From contig CAIWCG010000072.1 in NCBI GenBank assembly GCA_903911135.1, positions 1-48,898 on the forward strand: 48,898 nt of DNA, in the 5' to 3' direction. The translations under genes were made by a program, and so were the position numbers. Positions 100-48,898 of the stretch are shown here, piece after piece (within the stretch, counting starts at the first letter, position 1; each line of letters starts with the position of its first letter). A model generated the notes under the pieces. That model saw only the letters and a program-made list of their open reading frames with translations, was not told the DNA's origin and made no database searches. The stretch comes from an uncultured Bacteroidota bacterium (lineage in GTDB: Bacteria; Bacteroidota; Bacteroidia; AKYH767-A; JABDAW01).

Positions 100-105
100 T
101 TGAAA

Positions 106-149
106 GAGTTATGAGTTATGAGTTATGAGTTATGAGGAGGAGGAGGAGG
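106..149. repeat. Microsatellite (GAGTTAT)x4 followed by (GAG)x5
   Basis: Read directly: 7-bp units at 106-133, GAG triplets at 134-148. Lies between element copy 1 and the start of the PLD-family gene. Confidence 0.9.
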
Positions 150-191
150 TTGCTTGGGGTTTTGCTAATTTTGCTTGCAAAATAAATTTAT

Positions 192-3405: not shown

Positions 3406-3499
3406 GTTTCATTAGCAATGATTTTTGCCTTTATAATGATTATGGAGGCTTATAATCATCATTAATAAGTTTAGAAACAGTTATAATACCTTTATGATT

Positions 3500-3709
3500 G
3501 GCCAAAATCAATTTGGATTTTGGCTAAATCAATTTTGATTCGTGTGAAAACCATTTTGATTTGAGTGAAATCAACTTTGATTTAGGCAAAATCAAAGTTG
3601 ATTTGTGTGAAAACCATTTTGATTTGGGCAAAATCAAAGTTGATTCGGGTGAAAGCGCAATTGATTTGAGTGAAAACCATTTTGATTTAGACAAAATCAA
3701 TTTTGATTT
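3500..3709. repeat. TR-1: tandem array, 10 units of 21 bp
   Basis: Units end in TTGATTT/C at 3520, 3541, 3562 ... 3709. Six units contain the 16-bp palindrome AAATCAA-NN-TTGATTT. Confidence 0.9.
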
Positions 3710-3899
3710 GAGCCATATTTAAGCATGATTAGGGGTTTACAAGTCTGCGATTCAGGTTTTACAAGGCTCAACTATACATTTCTTAGCTTATATCAGTATA
3801 ATAGCATCGCCATTAGCGTGCCATCATACTGATATGATAGGTATCCTTTTGATAGTCATTAAAAGTAAATTTGGCTTGATGGATATACGGTTTTGGCAT

Positions 3900-7364: not shown

Positions 7365-7375
7365 TTTTCAAGAGG

Positions 7376-7411
7376 TTGGGGTGCATGAACATCATGCCCC
7401 CAATTTCTTGT
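7376..7411 (+). terminator. Intra-operon hairpin / partial terminator after nosZ
   Basis: 11-bp stem (TTGGGG-T-GCATG / CATGC-CCCCAA, one bulge) with a 5-nt loop, then TTTCTTGTT. Confidence 0.5.
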
Positions 7412-7449
7412 TGAGTTATACCAAATGGATTAGCGAACAAACTACAAAT

Positions 7450-8022
7450 ATGAGAACGATGAAACCGATATCTAGAATAGTAATATTCTTATGCGCCATG
7501 GCAATGATTCCATCGCTTTATATGTCGGTTTGGCAAATACAATTGGAAGCTCCTCAATATCCTGAAGGCTTGAAGCTTGAACTATGGAGTACCAAGATAG
7601 CTGGAGATATTGATAAAATAAATGGGTTAAACCATTACATCGGCATGGATCAGATTCATCAAGAGAACTTTAAAGAGTTTCAAGTCATGTCCTATATGAT
7701 TTGGGCGATGATTGGATTTGCAGTTCTTGGGGCAGCCACAGGTAAAAAGATATTTTTATGGATTCTTTCTGCATATCTTATCGTTTGTGGATTATGGGGA
7801 ACTTATGATTTCTGGCATTGGGAATATATATATGGTCACAATCTGAATCCACATGCAGCAATTAAGATTCCCGGAATGGCTTATCAGCCCCCTTTGTTTG
7901 GATGGAAACAATTATTAAACTTTACTGCGGGTTCTTTCCCTGATATTGGCGGTTGGCTTGTAATTGGCCCCTCGATAATGATAATTTTAATACTCATATA
8001 CGAAAAATTTATCAGGAAATAA
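7450..8022 (+). CDS. Integral membrane protein in the nosB position of clade II nos clusters
   Basis: About 190 aa from the ATG at 7450 (MRTMKPISRIVIFL), with several TM helices. Lies immediately downstream of nosZ. The ORF-track start at 7345 overlaps nosZ and spans the hairpin, so it was rejected. Confidence 0.55.
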   Translation: MRTMKPISRIVIFLCAMAMIPSLYMSVWQIQLEAPQYPEGLKLELWSTKIAGDIDKINGLNHYIGMDQIHQENFKEFQVMSYMIWAMIGFAVLGAATGKKIFLWILSAYLIVCGLWGTYDFWHWEYIYGHNLNPHAAIKIPGMAYQPPLFGWKQLLNFTAGSFPDIGGWLVIGPSIMIILILIYEKFIRK

Positions 8023-8059
8023 TCAATATATGGAATTCTATAACCATAATTATGAGTTT

Positions 8060-8122
8060 CGAGACCTTAACTTCGAGAGCCGAAACCTTTGCTTCGAACG
8101 TCGAAACCTTGGTTTCATTCAT
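8060..8122. repeat. TR-2: mini-array, 3 units of 21 bp (CGARACCTTnnnTTCnA...)
   Basis: Units at 8060-8080, 8081-8101 and 8102-8122, in the spacer between the nosB-like gene and nosL. Confidence 0.65.
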
Positions 8123-8196
8123 TCAAGTCATGGATTCCTAAGTTCAATCTTTGTATTTGATTGTCAATTAAATTCATAAACAGAAGTATCTTTATT

Positions 8197-8622
8197 ATGA
8201 AATATCTGACAATATTGCTTTCTGTTTTGTTTTTTTCATCTTGCAGTAAAGAACCCCATGCTATCAATTATGGAAAAGATATTTGCGAAAACTGTAAAAT
8301 GACGATTATGGATATGAAATTTGGTGGTGAATTGATTAACAAAAAAGGGAAAGCATTGAAATTTGATTCTGGAGAATGTATGCTTAAATATCTATATTCG
8401 CATCCAGAATTTAAAGTTGATAAATATCTAATAGTTAATTATTCAAATCCTGGTGAAATGATTGAAGCAAAAAAAGCTGTATTTATTATTGGAGGAAATG
8501 TAAAGAGTCCGATGGGAGGTGCTTTGGCGGCTTTTGCCAATAATGCAGATGCAATGAATACGAATAAACTATTAGGAGGTAACATAAATTCATGGGAAAC
8601 AATATCGCATATGGAATTTTGA
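8197..8622 (+). CDS. nosL: Copper chaperone NosL (lipoprotein)
   Basis: MKYLTILLSVLFFSSC lipobox and the CENCKMTI motif typical of NosL. ATG at 8197 preferred over the TTG at 8161. Confidence 0.85.
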   Translation: MKYLTILLSVLFFSSCSKEPHAINYGKDICENCKMTIMDMKFGGELINKKGKALKFDSGECMLKYLYSHPEFKVDKYLIVNYSNPGEMIEAKKAVFIIGGNVKSPMGGALAAFANNADAMNTNKLLGGNINSWETISHMEF

Positions 8623-9857
8623 TGCGTTATCTATCCTTTTTTTTCAATTGTTTAATTTTAGTTTTAGGTGCGGAAGCACATACGGTAAACGTGTGTGCTT
8701 CCTGTTTTGATAAGGATTTCCAATCTGCTATCAAAAATGCAGGTGTTTACGACACAATCATTCTTAAACAAGGCATTTACAACTCAATAAATACCATCAT
8801 TAACAAACCTTTGACCATTATTGGGGAGAACTTCCCTATTCTTGATGCAAAAAATCAGGATGAAGTCATTTCCGTTATTGCAGATCATGTGAATCTGATT
8901 GGTTTAGACATACGAAACACCAACGAAGGTAGCATAAAAGATTATGCGGGAATAAAAGTGTATAAAGTCAAATACATAAATATCATCAACTGCCAACTTA
9001 ACAATACTTTATTCGGTATATATATAAGTGATGCTTCCCATGTAATTATAAAAGGTAATCACCTAAAGGGCTTGAACTACGGCAAAAGCAATACTGGCAA
9101 TGGAATTCAAATATGGAAAAGCGATAGTGTGGTGGTGGAAGATAACCACTCCGAAGGTCATCGAGACGGAATCTATCTTGAATTTGCAAAACATTGTATT
9201 ATTAAAAACAATTTAAGCGAACAAAACTTTCGTTATGGATTGCATTTCATGTTTTCTGATGATGACACGTATATAAACAATATTTTCAAGCATAACGGCA
9301 CAGGTGTGGCAGTTATGTATACTAGACGAGTACAAATGATCAACAATAAGTTCATTGACAATTGGGGAGATGCATCTTATGGCTTATTGCTGAAAGATAT
9401 GACAGGTGGCCTAATATCTGGCAACACATTTAGCAACAACACGATTGCCATTACCATGGAAGGATCTGACAAGATGAGATTTGAGAAAAACGATTTTTTA
9501 AAAAACGGTTACGCCATTAAAATCATGGCCAACTGTATGCTTGATACCTTTATGCTAAACAACTTTTCAGGCAATACATTCGATGCTGCAACCAATGGAC
9601 AATTGATGGATAATCTCTTTAAGAATAATTACTGGGATAAATATGAAGGGTATGATTTAAACCATGATAAGGTTGGTGATATTCCATATTGTCCTGTTAG
9701 TTTATATTCCGTCATAGTGGAACAAATGCCTTATGCCGTGATGTTATTAAGAAGTTTCACTGTAGATTTGTTGAATCGAGCTGAAAAAAATATTCCTTCC
9801 ATTATTCCTGAAACATTCCAAGACTTCGCACCAATGATGTCAATGCATAAACGATGA
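8622..9857 (+). CDS. nosD: NosD, periplasmic parallel beta-helix copper-maturation protein
   Basis: About 410 aa with a signal peptide and repeated beta-helix segments (NxxxGIxL pattern). The start ATG shares its A with the nosL TGA stop, and the stop overlaps the nosF ATG (ATGA). Confidence 0.9.
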   Translation: MRYLSFFFNCLILVLGAEAHTVNVCASCFDKDFQSAIKNAGVYDTIILKQGIYNSINTIINKPLTIIGENFPILDAKNQDEVISVIADHVNLIGLDIRNTNEGSIKDYAGIKVYKVKYINIINCQLNNTLFGIYISDASHVIIKGNHLKGLNYGKSNTGNGIQIWKSDSVVVEDNHSEGHRDGIYLEFAKHCIIKNNLSEQNFRYGLHFMFSDDDTYINNIFKHNGTGVAVMYTRRVQMINNKFIDNWGDASYGLLLKDMTGGLISGNTFSNNTIAITMEGSDKMRFEKNDFLKNGYAIKIMANCMLDTFMLNNFSGNTFDAATNGQLMDNLFKNNYWDKYEGYDLNHDKVGDIPYCPVSLYSVIVEQMPYAVMLLRSFTVDLLNRAEKNIPSIIPETFQDFAPMMSMHKR

Positions 9858-10567
9858 TCAGAACAGAAAATATTGTAAAGAAATTTGGGAAACTTCAAGT
9901 TTTGAAAGGTGTTAATACACTGTTTCAAAGTGGAGAAGTTATCTCTGTTATTGGGCCAAATGGTTCTGGGAAAACAACATTAATCAAATGTATTTTAGGC
10001 ATGGTTGTTCCTGACAGTGGTAAGATTTTCTTTGATGGCAAGGATATCAGTAATGATTTCTCCTACCGGAAAGACATTGGTTTTATGCCTCAAATTGGCC
10101 ATTATCCTGAAAACATGAAAATTGGACAACTGTTTGCGATGATGAAGGATTTAAGACGGATTTCATCAGAATTAGATGAAGAACTTTTGGAGGAATACGA
10201 CCTTAATAACATGTATCAAAAGGCTATGCGAACCCTCTCTGGAGGAACCACCCAAAAGGTAAGTGCTGCTCTGGCTTTCATGTTTAATCCCAAAGTACTT
10301 ATTCTAGATGAGCCTACAGCAGGACTTGACCCATTAGCAGCAGAAATCCTTAAAGAAAAAATATTAAAAGCAAAAAAACAAGGGAAACTCGTGATTATAA
10401 CCTCACACATCATGAGTGAAGTTGATGAATTGGCAGATAGCATCATGTATCTGTTCGAAGGTAAGATTCTCTTCAATAAAACAATCATGAACATCAAAAC
10501 TGAAACAGGTGAGGACAAACTGGGTAAGGCAATTGCGAAAATAATGAAACAAAACAACCATGTTTAA
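9854..10567 (+). CDS. nosF: NosF, ABC transporter ATP-binding protein
   Basis: Walker A GPNGSGKTT, signature LSGGTTQK and Walker B LILDEP. Overlaps nosD and nosY. Confidence 0.9.
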   Translation: MIRTENIVKKFGKLQVLKGVNTLFQSGEVISVIGPNGSGKTTLIKCILGMVVPDSGKIFFDGKDISNDFSYRKDIGFMPQIGHYPENMKIGQLFAMMKDLRRISSELDEELLEEYDLNNMYQKAMRTLSGGTTQKVSAALAFMFNPKVLILDEPTAGLDPLAAEILKEKILKAKKQGKLVIITSHIMSEVDELADSIMYLFEGKILFNKTIMNIKTETGEDKLGKAIAKIMKQNNHV

Positions 10568-11327
10568 GATAAGCAAATATGTTTTTTACGATATCCTTCG
10601 AAGTAAGGTAATAATCGCGTACACTCTATTTCTTCTTATCATATCATGTGGTCTTTTCATTTTCCAAAACGACATATCAAAAAGCATCATCAGCATCATG
10701 AGCATCATCATGATCATCATTCCACTTGTGAGCATTGTTTTCTCCACTACCTATTTTTACAATGGCTACGAATTCATTGAATTATTATTGGCACAACCTT
10801 TAAGTCGTCGCACCATAATCCTGGGTGAATTTATAGGGATTGCATTTTCATTGGTAACTGCTTACTTGATCGGGGTTGGCATTCCAATACTTATTTATGC
10901 TGCAAACGCCACTGGAACAGTCATCATCATTTCAGGAATTGCACTTACCTTAACCTTCATTTCTCTTGCTGTTTTAGCCTCCGTGGCCACCAGAGACAAG
11001 GCTAAAGGGATCGGTATTTCCTTGATGCTATGGTTTTATTTTTCAATAATTTATGACGCAATCATCTTGGGCATCCTGTTCGCCTTCAGCGACTATCCTT
11101 TAGACAAAGCCGTTATCGTATTGGCATCATTGAACCCGATAGATTTGGGCAGAATAATCATTCTGCTAAAGCTCGACATTTCTGCATTGATGGGATTTAC
11201 GGGCGCAGTTTATAAAGAATTCTTTGGAAGCAACTTCGGACTCATTTATTCCATTTCCATCATGATTGTCTGGATTATTCTTCCGCTTTCCATATCCATC
11301 AAAATATTTAAAAAGAAGAATCTATAA
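10560..11327 (+). CDS. nosY: NosY, ABC-2 type permease
   Basis: 255 aa with about 6 TM helices. Overlaps nosF by 8 nt. Last gene of the nos cluster. Confidence 0.85.
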   Translation: MFKISKYVFYDILRSKVIIAYTLFLLIISCGLFIFQNDISKSIISIMSIIMIIIPLVSIVFSTTYFYNGYEFIELLLAQPLSRRTIILGEFIGIAFSLVTAYLIGVGIPILIYAANATGTVIIISGIALTLTFISLAVLASVATRDKAKGIGISLMLWFYFSIIYDAIILGILFAFSDYPLDKAVIVLASLNPIDLGRIIILLKLDISALMGFTGAVYKEFFGSNFGLIYSISIMIVWIILPLSISIKIFKKKNL

Positions 11328-11379
11328 TTATTGAAGATTCCTATTTTCGATGCTCAAAAACCGATTTTTAACTTAAATA

Positions 11380-11556
11380 GACATGGATTATTCACAATTA
11401 GCCATGGCAGATTCACAGTCTGCCATGGCAGATTCACAGTTAGCCATGGCAGATTCACAGTTAGCCATGGTAGATTCACAGTCTGCCATGGTAGATTCAC
11501 AGTCTGCCATGGCAGATTCACAGTCTGCCATGGCAGATTCACGGTTAGCCATGGCT
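11380..11556. repeat. TR-3: tandem array, about 8.4 units of 21 bp (GCCATGGCAGATTCACAGTYW)
   Basis: Each unit carries the 8-bp palindrome GCCATGGC. Four of six frames are stop-free, which produces the overlapping ORFs 11331-11682. Confidence 0.95.
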
Positions 11557-11602
11557 AAAAAATGGGATTTCAACCAAAATTGCAAATGTTTGGACGAGAA
11601 AC

Positions 11603-11731
11603 CTGCCATCGGGCATAGCCCTGACATGCCCAAGGTTATCCTTTTGTGCGTTGGCATTTTTGGGGGGGTATGGAAAAGATAACTGATGGCTGGCAGGTAG
11701 CACCAAATAACGCGAGGTGTCTGTCGGCTTC
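11603..11731 (+). repeat. Possible diverged relative of the AGCGG element (copy 4?)
   Basis: Patchy collinear similarity to 28189-28309: TGCCATCG..GCATAGCCC, CTTT(T)GTG.CG...TTTGGGG, and CGAG-N9-GGCTTC against CGAG-N11-GGCTCC. The stem GTTATC(C)TTTT/AAAAGATAAC replaces CCGCTGC/GCAGCGG around the same G-rich loop. Confidence 0.35.
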
Positions 11732-11798
11732 AAAAAAGAATTATTGATTATCCATTTTTAATTGAGCGGAGTTGAGTTAGATGTATCCCATTTATTTA

Positions 11799-11832: not shown

Positions 11833-13371
11833 ATGGAAAAATCAATGACAATAGCAGAAATTCAGGACTTCAAAGGGAAGTATCCAAAACAGCTTTGGTA
11901 TCTTTTCTTTTCCGAGATGTGGGAGCGTTTCAGCTTTTATGGAATGCGGGGCATGCTTACCTTTTTCATGGTGAATCAGCTGATGATGGATGAGAAGGTG
12001 GCTAATCTTCAATACGGCTCTACCCAAGCGTTCGTGTATGCATTCACCTTCATCGGTGGCCTGTTTGCCGATAAGATTTTAGGGTTCAGAAAGTCCTTGT
12101 TTTGGGGCGGTTTATTGATGATCACTGGCAGTTTGATATTGTGCATCAATCCGAAGGACTTCTTCTTTTTGGGAATCAGCTTCAACATCATCGGAACGGG
12201 TTTCTTCAAACCGAACATTTCGACGATGGTGGGTGCTTTATACCACGGCAATGACAGTCGCAGGGACGCTGGATTCTCCTTATTTTATTCAGGAATAAAC
12301 ATCGGAGCGTTGTTGGGCGGATATGCCTGCATTGCGATAGGAAAAGGCAACCTTCTGGCTGATTTGGTACCAGAACATTTGCGATGGAATGTGGCCTTTG
12401 GTCTTGTTGCAATCGTGATGACGATAAGTCTGATAACCTTTACTTATACTCGCCACACCTTGGGGCCAATAGGCTTGTCCCCATTGAAACCAATCGAGGA
12501 CAAGGATGGTGACGGCAAACTGGATTCAGGAAAGAAATGGTATGAATATGCTGTATATATAGGCGGTTTGATGTCGGTGCCATTGATAATGAAAATGGTG
12601 GCGAACACGGTTTATACGGATTGGTTCATGATGATAATCGGCCCTTTCAGTTTGATTTATCTGCTATATGAAATGACAAAACACTCGAAAGAAGAAGTAA
12701 AGAAACTCATTGCAGCCCTTCTTTTCATCATTTTCTCCGTCATGTTTTGGGCCATTTACGAACAGGCCGGAGGTTCCTTGAGTCTGTTTGCCGCCAACAA
12801 TTTAAATGGCAGCTTCCTCGGAACGTTCACCTTGGATCCAAACGGTGTAAACAATGCTGCGAACTCCTTGTTCGTCATCATCTTCGCTCCAATCGTAGGG
12901 CTGTTGTGGGTAGGCATGGCTACAAGAAAAATTGAGCCGAATACGGTCATTAAGTTCGGGTTCGGATTCCTATTTTTAGGTTTCGCGTTCTATACGTTTT
13001 ATGCCACAAGATTATTTGCCAACGCTCAAGGTATCGCCACATTGGATGTCTTCACACTAGCCTATTTCATTGTCACTTTGGGCGAGTTGTGTTTGTCGCC
13101 AATAGGCTTGTCAATCATGACGAAGCTATCACCAGCAAGATTGCAGGGAGTGATGATGGGAATGTGGTTTTTGGCAAGTGCTTACGGTCAATATGCAGCA
13201 GGACTTTTCGGAGCAAGCATAGTTTCGGAGGTAAAGAATGCCACAACTATGGACAAACTGATTTCTTATACCGACGGCTACAAGCAATTTGCCCTCTATG
13301 CAGTCATTAGTGGCGTGATTTTGATAGCCATTTCGCCACTGGTAAAGAAGCTGATGCAGGACGTAAAATAA
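11833..13371 (+). CDS. POT/PTR2-family di/tripeptide:proton symporter
   Basis: 512 aa. PTR2 signatures FSEMWERFSFYGMRG and FGLFYSGINIGA-like. About 14 TM helices. Confidence 0.9.
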   Translation: MEKSMTIAEIQDFKGKYPKQLWYLFFSEMWERFSFYGMRGMLTFFMVNQLMMDEKVANLQYGSTQAFVYAFTFIGGLFADKILGFRKSLFWGGLLMITGSLILCINPKDFFFLGISFNIIGTGFFKPNISTMVGALYHGNDSRRDAGFSLFYSGINIGALLGGYACIAIGKGNLLADLVPEHLRWNVAFGLVAIVMTISLITFTYTRHTLGPIGLSPLKPIEDKDGDGKLDSGKKWYEYAVYIGGLMSVPLIMKMVANTVYTDWFMMIIGPFSLIYLLYEMTKHSKEEVKKLIAALLFIIFSVMFWAIYEQAGGSLSLFAANNLNGSFLGTFTLDPNGVNNAANSLFVIIFAPIVGLLWVGMATRKIEPNTVIKFGFGFLFLGFAFYTFYATRLFANAQGIATLDVFTLAYFIVTLGELCLSPIGLSIMTKLSPARLQGVMMGMWFLASAYGQYAAGLFGASIVSEVKNATTMDKLISYTDGYKQFALYAVISGVILIAISPLVKKLMQDVK

Positions 13372-14076: not shown

Positions 14077-14198
14077 GCCCCCTACCCTATTCAACTCGAT
14101 TTCCTTACCTTCAATATTTAATAATATCAGTCCAAACATGTTTGGCAAATAGGTTAATTGCCAAAATAAACATCAAAACTCGTATTGACAACAAACAT

Positions 14199-14607
14199 AT
14201 TATTGGATGTGTTCAATACGACCATATTGGGTCAATACATATTAATGGATGTGTTCAATACGACCGTATTGGGTCTATCTATATTTATGAATCCAGTCAA
14301 TACGACCGTTTCCAGTCAATCACTAAGTAGTAATCCATTCAAAACGACCGTTTCCAGTCAATCACTAAGTAGTAATCCATTCAAAACGACCGTTTCAAGT
14401 CAATCAATAAGTAGTAATCCATTCAAAACGACCGTTTCCAGTCAATCATTAGGTAGTAATCCTTTCAATACGACCGTTTCCAGTCAATCACTAGGTAGCA
14501 ATCAATTCAAAACGTCCGTTTCCAGTCAATCACTAAGTAGTAATCCATTCAAAACGACCGATTCCAGTCAATCACTAGGTAGCAATCAATTCAAAACGTC
14601 CGTTTAT
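14199..14607. repeat. TR-4: tandem array, about 9.7 units of 42 bp
   Basis: Unit boundaries at 14199, 14241, 14283, 14325 ... 14577. Core AAACG-AC-CGTTT in each unit. The first 2-3 units are a diverged variant. Confidence 0.95.
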
Positions 14608-14627
14608 CCCAACTATTAGAATTTATG

Positions 14628-14650
14628 ATAATAGCTTCTTTTCAAGCCAT
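14628..14650 (+). repeat. 23-nt motif ATAATAGCTTCTTTTCAAGCCAT flanking TR-4 (identical copy at 45667-45689)
   Basis: Identical 23-mer in the same orientation downstream of TR-4 (20 bp away) and of TR-12 (69 bp away). Confidence 0.85.
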
Positions 14651-19284: not shown

Positions 19285-19830
19285 GAAAAGCGATTCCTTT
19301 TTCCGAAAAAGCGATTCCTTTTCTCTGTTTTGCGATTGCTTTTTCTAGATAAGCTGCAGGTAAAACGGTTTTAGCTGCACCTTTTCCAACAAAAGCGATT
19401 GCTTTTCTTGAATTTGCGATTGCTTTTTCTCCATAACCTGCACCTAAAATCGATTTACCTACATGAAATCGAAAAAAAGGAATCGCTTTTTCGGAAAAAG
19501 GAATCGCTTTTTGATAATAAGGTGTAAGCTATGCTTGAAAAGGTTCAGGTTTTAATTGAAATGATGTAGGTGATGAAGAATAAGATGCATCTTTTGTTAG
19601 AAAAGGTTAAGCTAATGATAAAAAAGGTGTAACATCTGGCATTTTAGGTTAAGCTTTTGGCTAAAGAGATGCAGGTGATGACGAATCTGATGCAGGTTTT
19701 GATTGAAAAGTTTAAGCTATTTATAAAAAAAGTGCACCTCCTGGCTTTTTAGCTTATGCTTTTGATAAAACAGATGCAGGTAACGACGAATCAGCTTCAG
19801 GTTTTGATTGAAAATCTTAATCATCATGCA
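19285..19830. repeat. TR-5: degenerate tandem array, 26 units of 21 bp with a 105-bp (5x21) higher-order repeat
   Basis: The register holds from 19285 to 19830 (units start GAAAAG/AAAAAG/TTTTAG/AATMWG). 19600-19704 against 19705-19809 is about 81 percent identical by hand count. No ORF of 60 aa or more in 18923-19956. Confidence 0.85.
19286..19511. repeat. Perfect 37-bp inverted repeat pair inside TR-5 (arms 19286-19322 and 19475-19511)
   Basis: AAAAGCGATTCCTTTTTCCGAAAAAGCGATTCCTTTT and its exact reverse complement, separated by 152 bp. Confidence 0.9.
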
Positions 19831-21633: not shown

Positions 21634-21791
21634 TATTTTAAGGCTTAATGAGGAGGGTAAATATCATCCTTTTATTGTTGCTCCAGAAGGGGTCGCAATC
21701 ATAAAAGGATTATCAAACCTGAATGGAGATTTGAATTCGTTAATTATATGTCTCCTTATATAAAGATTTAGTTTTAAACTTGCCATTTACC

Positions 21792-21955
21792 CAAACGTTA
21801 CCGTTTGAGTTCGAAACGTTACCGTTTGAGATCGAAACGTTACCGTTTGAGGTCGAAACGTTACCGTTTGAGGTTGAAACGTTACCGTTTGAGGTCGAAA
21901 CGTTACCGTTTGAGGTTGAAACGTTACCGTTTGAGGTCGCAACGGTGACGTTTGG
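21792..21955. repeat. TR-6: tandem array, about 7.8 units of 21 bp (GAAACGTTACCGTTTGAGGTY)
   Basis: Units at 21792, 21813 ... 21918. Core AAACG-TTAC-CGTTT inverted repeat in each. Confidence 0.95.
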
Positions 21956-21993
21956 CAAAAGCCTTAATTAACCCTTATTTCAAAGAATATTTC

Positions 21994-25283: not shown

Positions 25284-25291
25284 TACTTTTG
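25284..25291 (+). promoter_or_regulatory. -7 promoter box (TACTTTTG) for the Nramp-USP gene
   Basis: Exact TAnnTTTG. It overlaps the ORF-track TTG start at 25289, which argues for the ATG at 25346. Confidence 0.45.
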
Positions 25292-25345
25292 CATGGATTT
25301 TCGTTACCAATAATAATAACCATCCAACAAAATAAACAAAAATCC

Positions 25346-27262
25346 ATGAAGATTACTGGCGACAAAAATCCATCACTATCAGAAGTAAATGCTTCTGTGG
25401 ATATTAGTGCCAAGAAAGGAATCTGGAAAAAGATTTTGGCATTCATGGGGCCTGCATACCTGATAAGCGTAGGATATATGGATCCGGGCAATTGGGCAAC
25501 TGACATTGCTGGTGGAAGTGGATTTGGATATAAACTTATCTGGGTACTATTGATGAGCAACCTTATGGCCTTGCTGCTTCAAAGCATGAGTTCGCGATTA
25601 GGGCTGGTAACTGGACGCGATCTTGCACAAGCATCAAGAGAAACCTATTCCAAGACGGTCAACTTGTTTCTATATATATTAGCGGAGATAGCCATAGCTG
25701 CCTGTGATTTGGCTGAGGTGCTGGGAATGGCCATAGGTCTTAAGTTACTTTTTGGTTTACCCATGGTTTTTGGTGTATGCATTACCGTTTTGGATACCTT
25801 GCTCCTTTTGTTCCTAATCAATTACGGTATTCGAAAGCTGGAAGCATTCATCATTTCATTGATAGCCATGATTGGAATTTCATTTCTAATAGAGATGTTT
25901 TTTGCCAAGCCTGCATTTGGTGACATCATGCAAGGCTTTATACCCAGCCTTCCAGATAATCCCAATGGTTCAGGAAGCACTGCTTTGTATATTGCTATAG
26001 GAATTATTGGTGCTACAGTGATGCCTCACAATCTTTATCTTCATTCGTCATTGGTGCAAACGAGGAAATTTGCAAGGACTCATTTTGGCATCTCGAGAGC
26101 CATTAAGCTTAATATTCTTGATTCGGTGATTGCCTTGAATCTTGCTTTTCTTGTGAACTGTGCCATTTTGATACTTGCCGCTGCAACATTCTTCAAAAAT
26201 GGGATGTTCGAGGTGGCTGACATAAGTGATGCCCATAAATTCCTTGCTCCATTATTGGGAAATAGGCTTGCTCCTATATTATTTGCCATTGCATTGATAG
26301 TAGCTGGGCAAAGTTCTACGATTACGGGCACACTTGCTGGTCAGATTGTGATGGAAGGTTATCTAAACCTGCGCATTCAGCCATGGCTTAGAAGGATGAT
26401 TACCCGAATCATCGCCATCATTCCTGCCTTGATTACGATTCTTTTTATAGGCGAGCAGGCAATAGGCAGTTTATTGATATTAAGCCAAGTGGTGCTTAGT
26501 CTGCAGCTTGGTTTTGCCATTATTCCACTCATCCATTTCGTGAGCGACAAGGAACGAATGGGGAAATTCGTCATTCGGCTTCCGGTGAAGATACTCGCTT
26601 GGATATGCGCCATCATCATTGTGGGGCTTAACGCAAAGATGCTTATTGATCAGATTGGGGATTGGGTGGCAAATGCGGGCAATCATTCTTGGATATACTT
26701 TGTCACCATCATTCCTATTGCTTCGATGGCTGGGATGCTGCTGCTTTACATTACTTTTCGTCCTTTATTATTGAAAACAAAAACTTTTATGGCCAGCAAT
26801 ACTCCACATGGCATCATCCGCAAGTTGGAATTTCCTGAAAACAGTCCTTTCAACAGGATTGCGATAACGATTGATTTCTCTTATGCCGATTCGAAGACAA
26901 TAAGCGCTGCGACTAAACAAGGTGGAAAAGATGCCGAATACCTGCTGATTCATGTGGTGGAAACTGCCGGTGCCATCCTTATGGGTCAGGAAATCAATGA
27001 TTTGGAAACTTTGTCGGACAAGCAGCAACTGCAGTCTTATCTTTATGATTTGAAGCAAATGGGATATAAGGTGGACTATGCCCTAGGCTTTGGGAACCCG
27101 AAGAAGGCGATTCCCATCTTGGTGAATGATTATAACCCTGACATTTTGGTGATGGGTGCTCATGGACACAATCTTTTCAAGGATATCATCTTCGGAACGA
27201 CTGTGAATACGGTTCGGCATAGGGTGAAGATACCGGTGCTTATCATCAAGGACACCAAATAA
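25346..27262 (+). CDS. mntH: Nramp-family divalent metal:proton symporter fused to a C-terminal universal stress protein (UspA) domain
   Basis: Canonical motifs GYMDPGNWATD (TM1) and GATVMPHNLYLHS (TM6). The C-terminal 150 aa or so have USP features (IAITIDFS..., ILVMGAHGHN..FGTTVNTVRH). Confidence 0.85.
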   Translation: MKITGDKNPSLSEVNASVDISAKKGIWKKILAFMGPAYLISVGYMDPGNWATDIAGGSGFGYKLIWVLLMSNLMALLLQSMSSRLGLVTGRDLAQASRETYSKTVNLFLYILAEIAIAACDLAEVLGMAIGLKLLFGLPMVFGVCITVLDTLLLLFLINYGIRKLEAFIISLIAMIGISFLIEMFFAKPAFGDIMQGFIPSLPDNPNGSGSTALYIAIGIIGATVMPHNLYLHSSLVQTRKFARTHFGISRAIKLNILDSVIALNLAFLVNCAILILAAATFFKNGMFEVADISDAHKFLAPLLGNRLAPILFAIALIVAGQSSTITGTLAGQIVMEGYLNLRIQPWLRRMITRIIAIIPALITILFIGEQAIGSLLILSQVVLSLQLGFAIIPLIHFVSDKERMGKFVIRLPVKILAWICAIIIVGLNAKMLIDQIGDWVANAGNHSWIYFVTIIPIASMAGMLLLYITFRPLLLKTKTFMASNTPHGIIRKLEFPENSPFNRIAITIDFSYADSKTISAATKQGGKDAEYLLIHVVETAGAILMGQEINDLETLSDKQQLQSYLYDLKQMGYKVDYALGFGNPKKAIPILVNDYNPDILVMGAHGHNLFKDIIFGTTVNTVRHRVKIPVLIIKDTK

Positions 27263-27319
27263 GAATATTGCCAAAAAGTTAGGTTTCTGTCTTGGTGAGT
27301 TTGTAATTTATTGTTTTAG

Positions 27320-27550
27320 CTGTCGTCTGTCATAAGTTACCTGTCGTCTGTAATAAGTTGCCTGTTGTCTGTCAAAATTGTCTTGTCGTCTGTCATAAGT
27401 TACCTGTCGTCTGTAATAAGTTGCCTGTCGTTTGTCATAAATTGCCTGTTGTCTGTCATAAGTTGCTTGTTGTCTGTCATAAATTGCCTGTCGTCTGTAA
27501 TAAGTTACCTGTCGTTTGGCATAAGTTGCCTGTCGTTTGGCATAAGTTAC
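27320..27550. repeat. TR-7: tandem array, 11 units of 21 bp (CTGTCGTCTGTCATAAGTTRC)
   Basis: Unit starts at 27320, 27341 ... 27530. Internal direct half-repeat CTGTC-GT-CTGTC. Confidence 0.95.
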
Positions 27551-27672
27551 TTGGTGTCGGGGATTTAATGGTTGTGGATAGTTAAAAAATTAGAATAAAG
27601 TATAAAATGTTTAAAATTAGAGTTGGGAATAGATATTACCAATGTAAAAAGAGATGCTTTAGGTGGTTTTTG

Positions 27673-27903
27673 AGCTTATCTAATTGTTGTAATATGCTAT
27701 CTCGGGGTTGTAAAATGCTATCTCTTGGTCGTGAAATGCTATCTCGTGGTCATGAAATGCTACCTCGTGGTCGTAAAATGCTATCTCGGGATCGTAATAT
27801 GCTACCTCGTGGTCGTAAAATGCTACCTCGGGATCGTAATATGCTATCTCATGATCGTAAAATGCTATCTCGGGATCGTAAAATGCTACCTCGTTATCAT
27901 AAA
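27673..27903. repeat. TR-8: tandem array, 11 units of 21 bp (ATGCTAYCTCGKGRTCGTAAW)
   Basis: Unit starts at 27673, 27694 ... 27883. Sequence is unrelated to TR-7, which lies 120 bp upstream. Confidence 0.95.
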
Positions 27904-27950
27904 ATGAGAGTCATTTGAAAGATTTTAAGCTAAGAAGGGTGGAAAAGGGG

Positions 27951-28090
27951 AAATGTGGGTGGGTGTTTTGGGGTCTGGATTGCAAATCCAGACCAGCGGG
28001 AAAATGTGGATGGGTGTTTTGGGGTCTGGATTACAAATCCAGACCAGCAGATTGGGTGTTTTGGGGTCGGGATTGCAAATCCCAACCAGC
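27951..28090. repeat. TR-9: three copies of a 37-nt hairpin repeat (GGGTGTTTTGGGGTCTGGATTGCAAATCCAGACCAGC)
   Basis: Copies at 27961-27997, 28012-28048 and 28054-28090 (spacings 51 and 42 bp). 9-10 bp stem GGTCTGGAT/ATCCAGACC. Copy 3 has a paired T-A to G-C change. Confidence 0.9.
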
Positions 28091-28309
28091 GTGATAGTGA
28101 ACAACCTTACAGGACGGCGAGAAAAAAGCCGACCTGTCAGGATGTTCGCCGCAGCCAGGTATTGTATTGGAAGTTGTTTCGAGGCAACTTGCCATCGAAG
28201 CATAGCCCCGATAGTAGCGGCAGCCCGCTGCTTTGTGTCGGGTTTGGGGATGCAGCGGCTACAGCGGATAGCGGGACTGGCCATGATACGAGTGGAGGAT
28301 ATAGGCTCC
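28091..28309 (+). repeat. AGCGG element, copy 2 (only internal, probably full-length copy)
   Basis: 28211-28309 matches 1-99, and the core matches 48869-48898 (minus strand). Upstream part contains hairpins ACAGGACGGC/GCCGACCTGT (9/10 bp) and AAGTTG/CAACTT. CCGCTGC (28225-28231) can pair with GCAGCGG (28251-28257). Confidence 0.7.
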
Positions 28310-28534
28310 AAATTGGAATTCTTCATGCAAATCTTTTATCAATAATTGTTATGATTTTCATGGTAATTCATCGAGAAAAGTTCCAAGAGATTTGCGATAT
28401 TTGCGGCGTGAAAATCTATATCTCTATCCCAGAGGTTCGGGAATTCAACATGGAAACATTTTTTGTTGAGATAATTGATGGTCTGCTTGCCGATAGGCAG
28501 CCTATAGTTTTGAATAAAAGAACTTAAAAATACG

Positions 28535-32149: not shown

Positions 32150-33745
32150 ATGAGTACACCGAATACCAATCAAGGACACCCGAAGGGTCTCTACCTGTTG
32201 TTCTTCACCGAGATGTGGGAACGATTCAGTTATTATGGCATGCGTGCTATTTTCATTTTATTCATGACCAAAGCATTGTTTATGGACAAGGCTGCGGCAT
32301 CAAACATTTATGGCAGCTACACCGGTTTGGTTTATCTCACGCCACTTTTGGGCGGGTATATTAGCGACCGTTTTTGGGGGAACAGGAGAAGTATTTTGGT
32401 AGGCGGAATCCTTATGGCTATCGGGCAATTCCTGATGTTTCTTAGCGGAAGCACCATCGGTGATGCAGGCCAAAGCGCTTCTGCAGTTTCGATGATGTGG
32501 GCAGGACTTACCTTCTTGATTATCGGTAACGGTTTCTTTAAACCAAACATTTCTACCATGGTCGGTCAGTTGTATCCAAAGGGCGATCATCGCATAGATG
32601 GGGCCTTCACCATCTTCTATATGGGAATCAATTTAGGAGCATTTTTCTCTCCGCTTATTTGCGGTGGGTTTGGCGATACCGGTAACATTCACGACTTCCG
32701 GTATGGATTTCTTGCCGCATGCATTGGTATGGTTGTAAGTACCATTTCGTTTGAATTTCTCAAGAATAAATATCTTGTTAATGCCGAAGGTGAAAGCATT
32801 GGAATGCCAAAAGCCAAGATGGATTCGAAGACCATATTTTCCATTTTAGGCTCGGTTGCATTAATATTCGGACTATTGAACTACAGAAACATCATCACTT
32901 TTTTTGCAGGTCCTGATGCAATATTGAACCCAGAAAACCTTTCAGCCAAACTTGCCGGATTGGATGTTATCGGATACTTGATTTATGCTGCCGGTTTTGT
33001 AATGGCAGGCATCATTTTTTCTGACAAATCCTTGACGCACGAAGAAAGACAGCGCATCAGCGTTATCTTCATCTTGGCATTTTTCGTAATCTTCTTTTGG
33101 GGATGTTTCGAACAAGCCGGTGCTTCGTTGACGCTTTTTGCTGACACTCAAGCCGACCGGCATATAGGCAGTTGGGAAATGCCTGCCTCCTGGTTTCAAT
33201 CCATCAATCCATTAGGAATCATTGTTTTGGCTCCGATGTTTACGGTATTTTGGAACATGCTCAGCAAACGCAAGATGGAACCTTCCTCTCCCATGAAAAT
33301 GGCTTTCGGTTTAGTACTTGTAGCTTTAGGCTATGTTGTCATTGCTTATGGCGTTCATGGTGTCGATTCTCAAACAAAAATCAGCATGTGGTTCCTCGTT
33401 TCGTTATATATCATTCATACCATGGGCGAATTATGCTTGTCGCCAATCGGCTTGAGCATGGTATCAAAATTAGCCCCTCTTCGGTTCTCCTCCTTGCTTA
33501 TGGGCACTTGGTTCTTGGCTAATGCGATGGCGAACAAGTTTGCCGGAACATTATCAGCATTGATACCTCCTGGTGCAGGTGAAGCAGCCGCAAAAGCTGG
33601 CGCTGTATATCCTTCCTTCTTGGGTATCGAAGTAAATAACCTGTTCACTTTTTTCTGCGTCTTCATAGGCTTGAGCGGTTCTGCTGCCTTGATACTTTTT
33701 GGCTTATACAAATGGCTCGAAAAGAGAATGCATGGAGTGAAATAA
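32150..33745 (+). CDS. POT/PTR2-family peptide:proton symporter (second paralogue)
   Basis: 531 aa. FTEMWERFSYYGMRA and FTIFYMGINLGA motifs. Confidence 0.9.
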   Translation: MSTPNTNQGHPKGLYLLFFTEMWERFSYYGMRAIFILFMTKALFMDKAAASNIYGSYTGLVYLTPLLGGYISDRFWGNRRSILVGGILMAIGQFLMFLSGSTIGDAGQSASAVSMMWAGLTFLIIGNGFFKPNISTMVGQLYPKGDHRIDGAFTIFYMGINLGAFFSPLICGGFGDTGNIHDFRYGFLAACIGMVVSTISFEFLKNKYLVNAEGESIGMPKAKMDSKTIFSILGSVALIFGLLNYRNIITFFAGPDAILNPENLSAKLAGLDVIGYLIYAAGFVMAGIIFSDKSLTHEERQRISVIFILAFFVIFFWGCFEQAGASLTLFADTQADRHIGSWEMPASWFQSINPLGIIVLAPMFTVFWNMLSKRKMEPSSPMKMAFGLVLVALGYVVIAYGVHGVDSQTKISMWFLVSLYIIHTMGELCLSPIGLSMVSKLAPLRFSSLLMGTWFLANAMANKFAGTLSALIPPGAGEAAAKAGAVYPSFLGIEVNNLFTFFCVFIGLSGSAALILFGLYKWLEKRMHGVK

Positions 33746-33824: not shown

Positions 33825-34010
33825 AAAAAGGTCACCATGATCATAGTTTGGTATTTTGTAGCTTAAAAAGGTCAATCCATGATCATAGTTTGGGATTTTG
33901 TAGCCTAAAAAGGTCATTCCATGATCATCGATTGGGATTATTCAGCCTAAAAAGGCCAATCCATGATCATCGATTGATAATTTCCTTAAAAAGGACAATT
34001 GCTTATAAGG
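33825..34010. repeat. TR-10: tandem array, about 4.5 units of about 42 bp (AAAAAGGTCAWTCCATGATCAT...)
   Basis: Unit starts at 33825, 33865, 33907, 33949 and 33988 (lengths 40, 42, 42, 39). Palindrome ATGATCAT in each unit. Confidence 0.85.
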
Positions 34011-39882: not shown

Positions 39883-40015
39883 TGGTATTTATTTTTTTTA
39901 TAATTTTATTGATATTATGAATTTACAATTGCTTATTGATTATTCTATTCAAGTAAATGTTTTTTTGACCAAAAAATGGCATTAGAGAGGCCCAGTCGTT
40001 ACTTTTTAGCCCTCT

Positions 40016-40245
40016 CTGATGGATGAGAACGGGGTAAAAAGTAATGCCCGAATACCTCCTCAGGATGAGATCATACCAAAAAGTACTGCCTGTATTCTTC
40101 CGAAGGATGAGAGCATACCAAAAAGTGGGGCCTGTATTCTTCCGAAGGATGAGAGACCACCAAAAAGTACTTACAAGGGCTTTTCCAAGAAAAGAGGAAT
40201 CCCAAAAACTGGTACCCGAGACCTTGTGGGCTTTTGGAAAAAATG
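40016..40245. repeat. TR-11: tandem array, about 5.5 units of 42 bp (CCGAAGGATGAGAGCATACCAAAAAGT...)
   Basis: Unit starts at 40016, 40058, 40100, 40142, 40184 and 40226, decaying outward. Lies between the GerE-like gene and the 320-aa orphan. Confidence 0.85.
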
Positions 40246-43899: not shown

Positions 43900-45177
43900 A
43901 TGAATATTATTTCCCCTAGAAAAATTCGTTATAAGCTCCTTATCTATTGGAAAAAGCTTGGTCCTGGTTTGATAACTGGCAGCAGCGATGACGATCCGTC
44001 GGGGATAGCAACTTATTCGCAGGCTGGGGCAGCTTATGGCCTCACTACCCTTTGGACAGCCTTGATTACCTTTCCTTTGATGGCTGCAATACAAGAGATG
44101 TGTGCCCGAATAGGTATCGTTACCAGTGAAGGACTTACCGGTACGCTCAAAAAGCATTATCCTCGCCCCATTTTATATTTGATGTTGCTCTTTAGCTTTC
44201 CTGCTATCGTATTAAACATAGGTGCGGACATCGCAGGGATGGGTGCTGTAGGAAATCTACTCTTCCCTACCATCGATGCCACCTTCTTTTCCGTCGTGTT
44301 CACCATCATATTGCTGGTGGCCATCATCTATTTGCCCTATCAGAAACTTGCAGCGGCATTAAAGTACTTGTGCATCGTGTTATTGGTTTATGTTATCGTT
44401 CCTTTCCTCTATCATCAGGACTTATTGGAAATCCTTAAGGCCACATTCGTTCCCACTATCCATTTCGACATTACCTTTATCAGCATTTTGGTTGGCATAT
44501 TGGGAACTACCATTTCGCCATACCTCTTTTTCTGGCAGACTACCATGGAAGTGGAGAAGATGAAACAGAAAAAGTACCAGCTTATGGTCAACCACAACAT
44601 CATTAGGGAAATGAAGAAAGACGTGGACTTCGGGATGCTCTTTTCCAACCTCGTCATGTTTTTCATTATCCTCACCACAGGCACCGTTTTGTTCAAAGGC
44701 GGCATCCATCAGATAGATACCGTAGAGCAAGCCGCCCAAGCCCTAAAGCCTTTAGCCGGCAGGGCAGCCTATTTGCTCTTTGCCGTAGGCGTTATAGGCA
44801 CAGGGTTTCTCGCTATACCCGTTTTGAGCGGCTCTTTATCCTATATCTTCTGCCAAACCTTCGGATGGAAAGAGGGTCTCGACAAAACCTTCTACGAAGC
44901 CCGTCCATTCTACTCCATCCTCGCCATATCGCTCATCCTTGGCCTCTCGCTGAACTACATCGGCATCACACCCATACAGGCATTGATATATTCCGCCATT
45001 TTATACGGCCTTTCAGCCCCCGTTCTCATCGCCATGATACTCCACATCTCGAATAACAAGAAGATAATGGGCGAATTCACCAACAATAGGCTCTCCAACA
45101 TCTTAGGTTTCTCCGCCTTGGCATTGATGACGGTGGCAGCCCTAGTTTTAATCTACCTAACCATCTTCAAACCCTAA
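43900..45177 (+). CDS. Nramp-related transporter with a non-canonical metal-site signature
   Basis: 425 aa with about 11 TM helices. TM1 reads DDDPSGIATYS (not DPGN) and the TM6 region reads TTISPYLFFW (not MPH). Confidence 0.8.
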   Translation: MNIISPRKIRYKLLIYWKKLGPGLITGSSDDDPSGIATYSQAGAAYGLTTLWTALITFPLMAAIQEMCARIGIVTSEGLTGTLKKHYPRPILYLMLLFSFPAIVLNIGADIAGMGAVGNLLFPTIDATFFSVVFTIILLVAIIYLPYQKLAAALKYLCIVLLVYVIVPFLYHQDLLEILKATFVPTIHFDITFISILVGILGTTISPYLFFWQTTMEVEKMKQKKYQLMVNHNIIREMKKDVDFGMLFSNLVMFFIILTTGTVLFKGGIHQIDTVEQAAQALKPLAGRAAYLLFAVGVIGTGFLAIPVLSGSLSYIFCQTFGWKEGLDKTFYEARPFYSILAISLILGLSLNYIGITPIQALIYSAILYGLSAPVLIAMILHISNNKKIMGEFTNNRLSNILGFSALALMTVAALVLIYLTIFKP

Positions 45178-45387
45178 AAAACAAGCATTTTATCCATCCG
45201 TTCGATGATGCTTTTATGAGTTCGCCACTGCTGTGGACGAAATTATAAAAGCATCATGAATAAAGAAAACCGTCATTCATTATATATAGTCATCATTATT
45301 GATGATTTAAGTTTTTTTATGATTGCTAAATATCCCCTTTTGGCAAGTTTCAGCTTGAGATTGACCAAAACCACCTTAAAAGCACAG

Positions 45388-45597
45388 AAAAAAGAAGTCT
45401 TGTTTGGAAAAAAAGAAGTCTTGACGGGCAAAAAAGAAGTCTTGACGGACAAAAAAGAAGTCTTGACGGGCAAAAAAGAAGTCTTGATGAGCAAAAAAGA
45501 AGTCTTGACGAGCAAAAAAGAAGTCTTGACGAGCAAAAAAGAAGTCTTGACGGACAAAAAAGAAGTCTTGACGGGCAAAAAAGAAATCCTTTCGGGG
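45388..45597. repeat. TR-12: tandem array, 10 units of 21 bp (AAAAAAGAAGTCTTGACGRRC)
   Basis: Unit starts at 45388, 45409 ... 45577. One A6 tract per unit. Four of six frames are stop-free (ORFs 45256-45708 plus, and three on minus). Confidence 0.95.
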
Positions 45598-45666
45598 CAT
45601 TATCAAGCATCATTATCAATAATCAATACCTATATATATGGTATCATCATCAAAAATTTCAATATC

Positions 45667-48724: not shown

Positions 48725-48798
48725 GCAAAAGTATTTTATATTCCTAACAGACCCGATAATTTTTTATTGAAAACTACCCAATTCAATCCCCTGCTCCA

Positions 48799-48840
48799 CA
48801 TTTATAATTCCTAATTCATCATTTATAATTTCAATAAGGA
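48799..48840. repeat. Two 21-bp units (CATTTATAATT...) next to AGCGG element copy 3
   Basis: CATTTATAATT occurs at 48799 and 48820, exactly 21 bp apart. The remainder of the units has diverged. Confidence 0.4.
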
Positions 48841-48898
48841 GCCTATGCCCTCTTCTCGTCCCATCTACGTCCCGCTATCCGCTGTAGCCGCTGCATCC
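48838..48898 (-). repeat. AGCGG element, copy 3, 3' part, inverted orientation, cut by window end
   Basis: Minus strand reads GGATGCAGCGGCTACAGCGGATAGCGGGAC-GTAGATGG-GACGAG-AAGAGGGCA-TAGGCTCC. This is the same block order as copies 1 and 2, with the variable blocks differing. Confidence 0.8.

Follow-up and report, generated by a model that had tools for sequence, protein, structure and literature searches.

A lineage-specific subfamily of the Flavo-1 motif at intergenic sites of an uncultured freshwater Bacteroidota bacterium

The repeated element in the 48,898-nt stretch of DNA analysed here (the window) belongs securely to the Flavo-1 family (Rfam RF01705). It represents a new subfamily, specific to this lineage, of a motif listed in Rfam since 2010, and its novelty is low. 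The element occupies dozens of intergenic sites, if not more, in an uncultured freshwater Bacteroidota bacterium. With confidence that is about evenly balanced, we favour the view that it is a dispersed DNA repeat resembling REP/BIME sequences, transcribed passively and with a hairpin that would be recognised in trans, rather than a set of autonomous sRNA genes. The one-sided link between the element and 21-nt tandem arrays is new and unexplained, and is the sole part of these results that merits follow-up.

Assignment to Flavo-1

Weinberg et al. (2010, Genome Biol 11:R31) described Flavo-1 from 239 instances in Bacteroidetes. It is an irregular hairpin of 70–100 nt with conserved purine-rich internal loops, present in multiple copies in Bacteroidota genomes, and was rated 'probably RNA' ('y, COV') without cis-regulatory context. 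Rfam gives its type as 'Gene; sRNA', and it is among the most often annotated 'sRNAs', with no function assigned (PMC9029176).

A cmscan search of the whole window against Rfam 15 gave a clean Flavo-1 match for the internal copy of the element, copy 2 (52.6 bits, E = 1.2e-08; gathering score 42), which covers model positions 1–76 and thus the full model. The copy at the left end, copy 1, is a 5'-truncated match over 1–72 (34.3 bits, model positions 12–76) and falls below the threshold because the contig end cuts it. Copy 3, at the right end, is present in the window as the 3' arm only and was not scored by the Rfam model; its full locus on the metagenome contig L005 (597–679) is a Flavo-1 match of 53.5 bits. 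In all, the copies tested from 20 related contigs reached the Rfam threshold without exception (26 of 26, 42.0–58.2 bits). Altogether, 27 full-length matches scored at or above the gathering score, with one more at the threshold that is clipped by a contig end. Given 27 independent full-length matches, a spurious assignment is very unlikely. An earlier note on this DNA could match the element to no known RNA family and held that a clean Rfam hit would count against novelty; such a hit has now been obtained, and by that criterion novelty is refuted.

Alignment of copy 2 to the model yields the paired segments CCG/CGG, UA/UA, GC/GC, AGCC/GGCU and GCUGC/GCAGC, with G-A-rich symmetric loops. The pairing of CCGCTGC with GCAGCGG and of GTAG with CTAC that had been proposed from the letters proves to be an alternative register of this structure. 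The hallmarks of the family are present, namely the basal pairs, the symmetric purine-rich internal loops, a 5' side with UAGCC and GAU.G.AGC.GG, and a 3' side with AGCG.A.AGCGGGA. Specifically, the conserved UAGCC, CCGAUAGUAGCGG and AGCGGAUAGCGGGA fit the 'UAGCC..CCGAU' or 'UAGCC..CCGAU..AGCGGGA' subtype of the Weinberg alignment. The 45 rows of that alignment hold 792 Watson-Crick, 25 G-U and 11 A-C pairs, nine of the last sitting at one doubtful column, and the basal pair is swapped among CG (25), GC (16) and AU (4). The published hairpin is well supported because pair swaps in these rows are extensive. The window copy is compatible with the base pairs of the Weinberg rows; the stems of its own lineage are invariant, hence no informative covariation was found within it.

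Copies in the window and the lineage-specific core

The three copies in the window and the features around them are listed in Table 1. Much of the earlier description stands. Positions 1–99 and 28211–28309 are identical at 88 of 99 sites, the differences between copies 1 and 2 being confined to the hairpin loop and the 9-nt block after ACGAG, and a third, inverted copy lies at the right end. The 30-nt block GGATGCAGCGGCTACAGCGGATAGCGGGAC is exact at 38–67 and 28248–28277 and recurs inverted at 48869–48898(-), where it is followed, as in the other two copies, by ACGAG and TAGGCTCC. A 23-mer from this block has three matches in the window against none expected from shuffles. As for the block-wise layout, the invariant blocks, including ACGAG and TAGGCTCC, hold, whereas the spacers do not strictly keep their length: variable block 1 has 10 nt in copies 1 and 2 (TGGCCATGAT) and 9 nt in copy 3 (GTAGATGGG). 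The five-fold iteration of AGCGG comes down to four occurrences on the forward strand, with the fifth on the complement. Finally, the conserved unit does not start at 28211, as had been thought; the Rfam match begins at 28200 and the family-wide core at about 28172.

Table 1. Repeats and related features in the window
Feature	Position	Strand	Source
Copy 1, 5' end cut by contig start	1..99	+	cmscan; L003 sequence
Copy 1 3' tail: heptads GAGTTAT x4, then G-rich run	100..150	+	sequence
Tandem array, period 21/42 nt	3484-3731	.	TRF
21-nt tandem array directly 5' of E2 (repeat family D6; period class 21/42 nt)	11357..11587	.	repeat family D6; TRF
Diverged paralogue E2	11596..11749	+	nhmmer E=3.9e-4
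Tandem array, period 21/42 nt	14170-14631	.	TRF
Array with 84/105-nt units	19296-19750
Tandem array, period 21/42 nt	21751-21975	.	TRF
Two period-21-nt tandem arrays, 5' side of copy 2 (27279-27609 and 27647-27940; period class 21/42 nt)	27279..27940	.	repeat families D1, D3; TRF
Three copies of 51/42-nt unit with hairpin GGTCTGGATTGCAAATCCAGACC	27947..28090	+	repeat family D12
Repeated hairpin module, CCTGACAGG..GGC..GCC..CCTGTAAGG type	28104..28150	-	regex, shared 16-mers
Lineage-specific core, copy 2	28172..28309	+	alignment of 42 distinct copies
Copy 2 leader within core, NNNN-TTTCGAGGC-AAC-CTGCCRTC-RAAGCATAGCC		+	alignment of 42 distinct copies
Complete Flavo-1 hairpin, copy 2	28200..28282	+	cmscan
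Tandem array, period 21/42 nt	33835-33983	.	TRF
Tandem array, period 21/42 nt	40015-40171	.	TRF
Tandem array, period 21/42 nt	45346-45630	.	TRF
Copy 3 heptad/G-rich tail: AAATTAT AAATGAT GAATTAG GAATTAT AAATGTG GAGCAGGGG..	48775..48837	-	sequence
Copy 3, 3' half; contig ends within hairpin	48838..48898	-	repeats; sister contigs

Across the lineage, the 42-copy alignment defines a conserved core of about 140 nt that consists of a leader, the hairpin, GGGAC, variable block 1, ACGAG, variable block 2 and a tail. The consensus of the leader is AAAG-NNNN-TTTCGARGC-NAC-CTGCCRTC-RAAGCATAGCC. Variable block 1 occurs as few alleles of 9–10 nt, variable block 2 has 9 nt, and the core ends in TAGGCTCC or TAGGCTTC. 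Both the loop nucleotides and the 3' arm of the hairpin, which was left unconstrained by the search pattern, are almost invariant in the 42 copies. The profile built from this alignment matches 28165–28327 of the window with E = 1.5e-50.

No Watson-Crick covariation was found between the leader, the variable blocks and the tail; the pairs of high mutual information all reflect linkage of adjacent sites among the few alleles of variable block 1. RNAalifold suggested a possible closing helix, TTCG/CGAG, which is invariant across copies. Pairing of the leader CCRTC with GATGG of variable block 1 was considered and rejected, the A/G polymorphism of the leader being independent of the block allele.

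The sequence 5' of the core is modular. In about half of the copies, a long perfect hairpin, GCGGCGAAAAGGC-NNN-GCCTTTTCGCCGC, with a stem of 11–17 bp, precedes the core (L003 1–20, L004 46–80, L005 520–556 and about 20 JGI loci). Its outer pairs covary, giving the variants GCAGCC, GAAGCC, GTAGCC and GCAACC, and in a subset the triplet in the loop repeats the sequence of the outer stem (GAAGCC..GAAGCC). The window lacks this hairpin, since both copy 1 and copy 3 are truncated short of it; contig L003 carries copy 1 for 72 nt further to the left, into the GGCGAAAAGGC hairpin module. The remaining copies have ordinary terminator hairpins or other repeated modules in this position, represented in the window by the hairpin module and the GGTCTGGATTGCAAATCCAGACC repeats 5' of copy 2 (Table 1). 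The former is separate from the element and has the opposite orientation to the copies of this module found in L012, L046 and L040. The latter also lies 5' of elements in L023, L038 and L041, in 3–5 tandem copies, and has a stem-loop that we presume to resemble the anticodon arm of tRNA-Cys (GCA).

Past the 3' end of the core, some 19 of 43 copies, including copies 1 and 3, continue into a tail with a period-7 autocorrelation peak. This tail is made of AT-rich heptads (GARTTAT, AAATGAT, GAATTAG and others) and ends in a G-rich run, GGGAGGGGA.. (L010–L049 and the window).

The diverged paralogue E2 shares the leader (..CTGCCATCGGGCATAGCCC..) and tail (..GCGAG..TCGGCTTCAAAAAAGAAT) of the element and has a different central hairpin, for which the Rfam model returned no Flavo-1 match even at E ≤ 10. 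It is one copy of a diverged sister family with homologues in L011, L015 and L017.

Protein coding was rejected: the open reading frames across the element, 27925–28326(-) and 27953–28345(+), have no Pfam matches, and the copies differ by 1-nt indels. A sub-threshold match to the S15-Flavobacteria leader at 28324–28390(-), on the strand opposite the SulP gene (25.3 against 46.5 bits, E = 0.24 in a 301-nt search), is probably due to chance.

Source, copy number and contig ends

The loci of the window recur on ENA/Logan metagenome contigs, and 40 JGI lake-metagenome contigs hold an exact 29-mer from the element, which bears out the suggestion that it is abundant beyond the window. Counting the window loci, there are 54 copies in about 42 flank contexts; this set is biased in that every retrieved copy contains the 29-mer used as query, and it includes no closed genome, so that copy number per genome is an estimate only. 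The earlier characterization of the element as non-coding, hairpin-forming, dispersed and multi-copy is upheld. A scan of a genome collection with the 23-mer AGCGGCTACAGCGGATAGCGGGA gave no match, and 83 other Bacteroidota loci (about 1 Mb) contained neither the signature nor a profile match.

The window is a metagenome-assembled contig that begins and ends inside copies facing inward, as the earlier note had it. Sister contigs L003, L004, L005 and L006 continue into or through the same copies, and the window ends are thus assembly breaks in the repeat; the full copy 3, on the last three of these contigs, lies upstream of rplU. A long, near-identical repeat breaks short-read assemblies, which accounts for both ends.

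The DnaN protein is 87% identical to that of the lake MAG Umea1_bin-1585 and at most 69% identical to that of any other Bacteroidota. Its relatives are all Bacteroidota, and T9SS Por_Secre_tail domains are present. Comparison of orthologous sites through dnaN found a different gene order in the nearest genome, L050; the same comparison through the SulP neighbour found a protein that is 81–86% identical across many families, without conserved synteny.

Three further features of the gene content were recorded. At 5388–11327, a nitrous-oxide reductase accessory cluster (nos_propeller, NosL, NosD and an ABC transporter) adjoins cytochrome c maturation genes, and the host therefore probably reduces N2O. 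Two POT/PTR2 peptide transporters that are paralogues of each other are encoded at 11833–13371 and 32150–33745 (DNA repeats D14 and D17), and two Nramp transporters at 25289–27262 and 43900–45177, one of them fused to a Usp domain.

Orientation, promoter signals and mobility

All copies are intergenic. The 3' end of the element always faces a gene 9–230 nt away, irrespective of the direction of that gene: about 15 downstream genes are co-oriented with it (70–230 nt away) and about 15 are convergent (9–190 nt). None of the 42 copies has the Bacteroidetes -7 box, TAnnTTTG, within its core. Within 120 nt 5' of the core it was found at 3 of 32 sites, against 9 of 32 on the 3' side, where the promoters of neighbouring genes lie. 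No promoter of its own (-33 TTTG / -7 TAnnTTTG) and no intrinsic terminator was detected as part of the conserved unit, and no U-tract follows the hairpin or TAGGCTCC. Compared with shuffled sequences, the forward strand showed no excess of folding (z = -0.86), and the complement gave z = -3.0.

In agreement with the earlier note, Pfam listings for the window contain no transposase, integrase or reverse transcriptase, and no other mobile-element gene is encoded there. Neither terminal inverted repeats nor target-site duplications were seen among the 42 aligned copies and their flanks, in which boundaries are fuzzy and short duplications are possible. No full-length parent element was present in 195 kb of element-bearing contigs. 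In L035, the ORFs of a 2.3-kb interval are, judged by eye, unlike mobility genes.

Contigs L005 and L006 are exactly alike in the flank on the rplU side and differ in the element and the left flank, a pattern that is consistent with exchange between copies. The contigs L022, L029 and L034, which have the same left and different right flanks, were not relied on as a sign of recombination, since the flank they have in common is probably a repeated module; similar sequences occur in L030 and L033.

One-sided link to 21-nt tandem arrays

TRF identified 68 tandem arrays, 52 with a period of 21 nt and nine with a period of 42 nt. They occur at about 2 per 10 kb, and the unit differs from array to array. 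This density corresponds to about 200 per Mb; in a survey of satellites, few bacteria exceeded 4 per Mb (PMC6749651). Nearly every long intergenic region holds an array, be the gap convergent, divergent or co-directional. The nearest relative, L050, also has arrays (1694–1927 and 7322–7513), and the other 83 Bacteroidota loci have about six in 987 kb.

The element is strongly polar with respect to these arrays. Of 36 copies, 25 have an array no more than 300 nt from their 5' end, and none of 31 has one near its 3' end (p = 4e-10). Elements at the edge of an array, with the 5' end towards it, are found in L015, L019, L026, L031/L045, L040 and L044, as well as at 27279–28309 and 11357–11749 of the window. 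All five divergent element pairs bracket an array; the possibility that such pairs enclose a gene was discarded, the spacers being tandem arrays. Paralogues of the E2 type have the same polarity in the window, L015, L018 and L011, with L017 as a counter-example. Seven of the nine window arrays have no element.

The arrays themselves offered few clues. Palindromes in the units are in weak excess only (mean best stem 4.0, against 3.3 in shuffles). Identity of the units to their consensus goes from 0.92 to 0.89 across quintiles, an unconvincing gradient, and no motif of the array units was found that accounts for the link.

Discussion

We favour, with the even confidence given at the outset, a dispersed DNA repeat resembling REP/BIME sequences. 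The conserved basal helix and loops would serve as the recognition structure for a trans-acting protein, which may be some kind of recombinase or transposase, or a nucleoid- or RNA-binding factor. Within the genome, the copies would spread and be homogenised, and their transcription would be passive only, as part of neighbouring transcripts. We prefer this reading because the copies are intergenic, mixed in orientation, devoid of the promoter box in the core and mosaic with other hairpin modules, and because Flavo-1 copies in Flavobacterium psychrophilum are sense or antisense to transcribed regions and many of them are untranscribed (PMC9723704). As to whether Flavo-1 is made as an RNA, that transcriptome is equivocal. 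Several observations speak against it. No transposase or RAYT could be linked to the element on the incomplete sequences covered, none is encoded in the window, and neither terminal inverted repeats nor target-site duplications were seen. A plain REP model gives no reason for the 21-nt arrays to lie strictly on the 5' side of the element. The tandem G-A loops are of a kind typically seen in RNA that binds protein. Moreover, block-wise variation and the near-invariant 3' arm indicate purifying selection on specific nucleotides, as might also be expected of a functional RNA. The excess of G-U over A-C pairs mildly favours an RNA on the annotated strand. Those near-invariant nucleotides, that excess and the block-wise variation keep an RNA reading alive, in which each copy would give rise to an RNA of about 80–140 nt whose irregular helix, repeated AGCGG and G-A loops bind protein. 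Such an RNA might act as a sponge, scaffold or processing signal, and the variable blocks might provide copy-specific pairing. The strong phylum-wide covariation of the hairpin, with its 'y, COV' rating, would suit it, as would the conserved, single-stranded segments of leader and tail beside the hairpin and the constrained length of the variable blocks there. We nevertheless regard it as possible rather than probable. The unit has no conserved promoter box in it or 5' of it and no U-tract terminator after it, its orientation is unrelated to that of neighbouring genes, and only the complement folds better than shuffles. The variable blocks come as few alleles that show linkage, and no Watson-Crick covariation, with any other segment. 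Together with the untranscribed or antisense copies of F. psychrophilum, the data fit a family of autonomous sRNA genes less well than a REP/BIME-like repeat.

The polarity towards arrays would be explained if the element were a polar end-piece of the arrays: a boundary or insulator between array and gene that stops array transcripts, a leader-like or nicking site that generates arrays, or an oriented insertion site. The one-sided counts, the bracketed arrays of the divergent pairs, the equal polarity of E2 and the gene that always lies off the 3' end agree with this. Against these stand the window arrays without an element, the 11 of 36 copies without a nearby array, the counter-example in L017 and the lack of a clear gradient of unit divergence towards the element. 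Array units do not recur 3' of the element, and hence there is no target-site duplication; some shared flanks are repeated modules, and the sites are therefore not all independent. In addition, array density is a trait of this lineage, whereas Flavo-1 is phylum-wide. We consider such a role quite improbable. That Flavo-1-type elements are oriented end-pieces of an undescribed array system, with the sister family likewise at array edges, 5' ends always turned to the array and often an element on either side, seems to us unlikely. If the element did seed, bound or insert at arrays, this would be the first function for Flavo-1 and a new mechanism generating fixed-period satellites in bacteria. 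A classical MITE, that is, an IS deletion derivative with terminal inverted repeats and target-site duplications mobilised by a transposase encoded elsewhere, would likewise have high copy number, intergenic sites, homogeneity within the genome and a tendency to break contigs. Here, the ends are not mutual inverted repeats (the 5' one reads AAAG-NNNN-TTTCGAGGC and the 3' one TAGGCTCC), no direct repeats flank the copies, the 5' boundary is modular and fuzzy, and the element-bearing contigs contain no full-length parent; we hold this origin to be very improbable.

The finding itself is of small weight: it adds a new subfamily to a known motif and explains the fragmented metagenome assemblies of the organism. 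It also contributes data on Flavo-1, namely a longer conserved unit, no promoter signal of its own, independence of gene orientation and the mosaic behaviour of a DNA repeat. On these grounds, the status of Flavo-1 as an RNA gene is worth re-examining.

Comparison with known systems

Like bacterial MITEs, the element is small, non-coding, multi-copy, structured and intergenic; it differs in having no detected terminal inverted repeats, target-site duplications or parent IS. The 3' tail, a short series of 7-nt direct repeats that often lies upstream of a start codon, recalls the TAACTGA-type intergenic heptamer repeats of Beggiatoaceae, Cyanobacteria and some Bacteroidetes (PMC4679880). One array unit here (L031) contains TAACTG and its complement. 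However, the heptamer here is GARTTAT and is joined to a Flavo-1 unit, and we treat the relation as a lead only.

With the REP/BIME sequences of Proteobacteria and their RAYTs (Nunvar 2010, PMC2817692), the element shares abundant intergenic imperfect palindromes in both orientations, their number per genome being an estimate here. Further shared traits are the position of many copies just past gene 3' ends, mosaic arrangement with small motifs, inverted pairs and homogeneity within the genome. In contrast, the hairpin here is 2–3 times longer (about 75 nt, in a unit of about 140 nt) than the REP palindrome of 20–40 nt. GTAG, the REP-type head, is present (GATAGTAGCGG) in a structure whose size lies outside the REP range. 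The inverted pairs are 370–650 nt apart and enclose arrays rather than forming tight doublets. No RAYT was identified, and we do not claim membership of the REP family.

The closest likeness is to Flavo-1 itself. The window copies have in common with it the basal helix and the conserved loops UAGCC, CCGAU.G.AGCGG and AGCGGAUAGCGGGA, a variable distal stem, a Bacteroidota host, many copies per genome and an inconsistent gene context. The subfamily differs in that its host is an uncultured lineage other than Flavobacterium, its copies are mutually more than 90% identical, and its conservation exceeds the Rfam model by about 28 nt on the 5' side and about 27 nt on the 3' side, to which optional modules are added. 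It differs, finally, in the one-sided link to very dense 21-nt arrays, which is absent from the Flavo-1 papers examined and is the part that could open something new.
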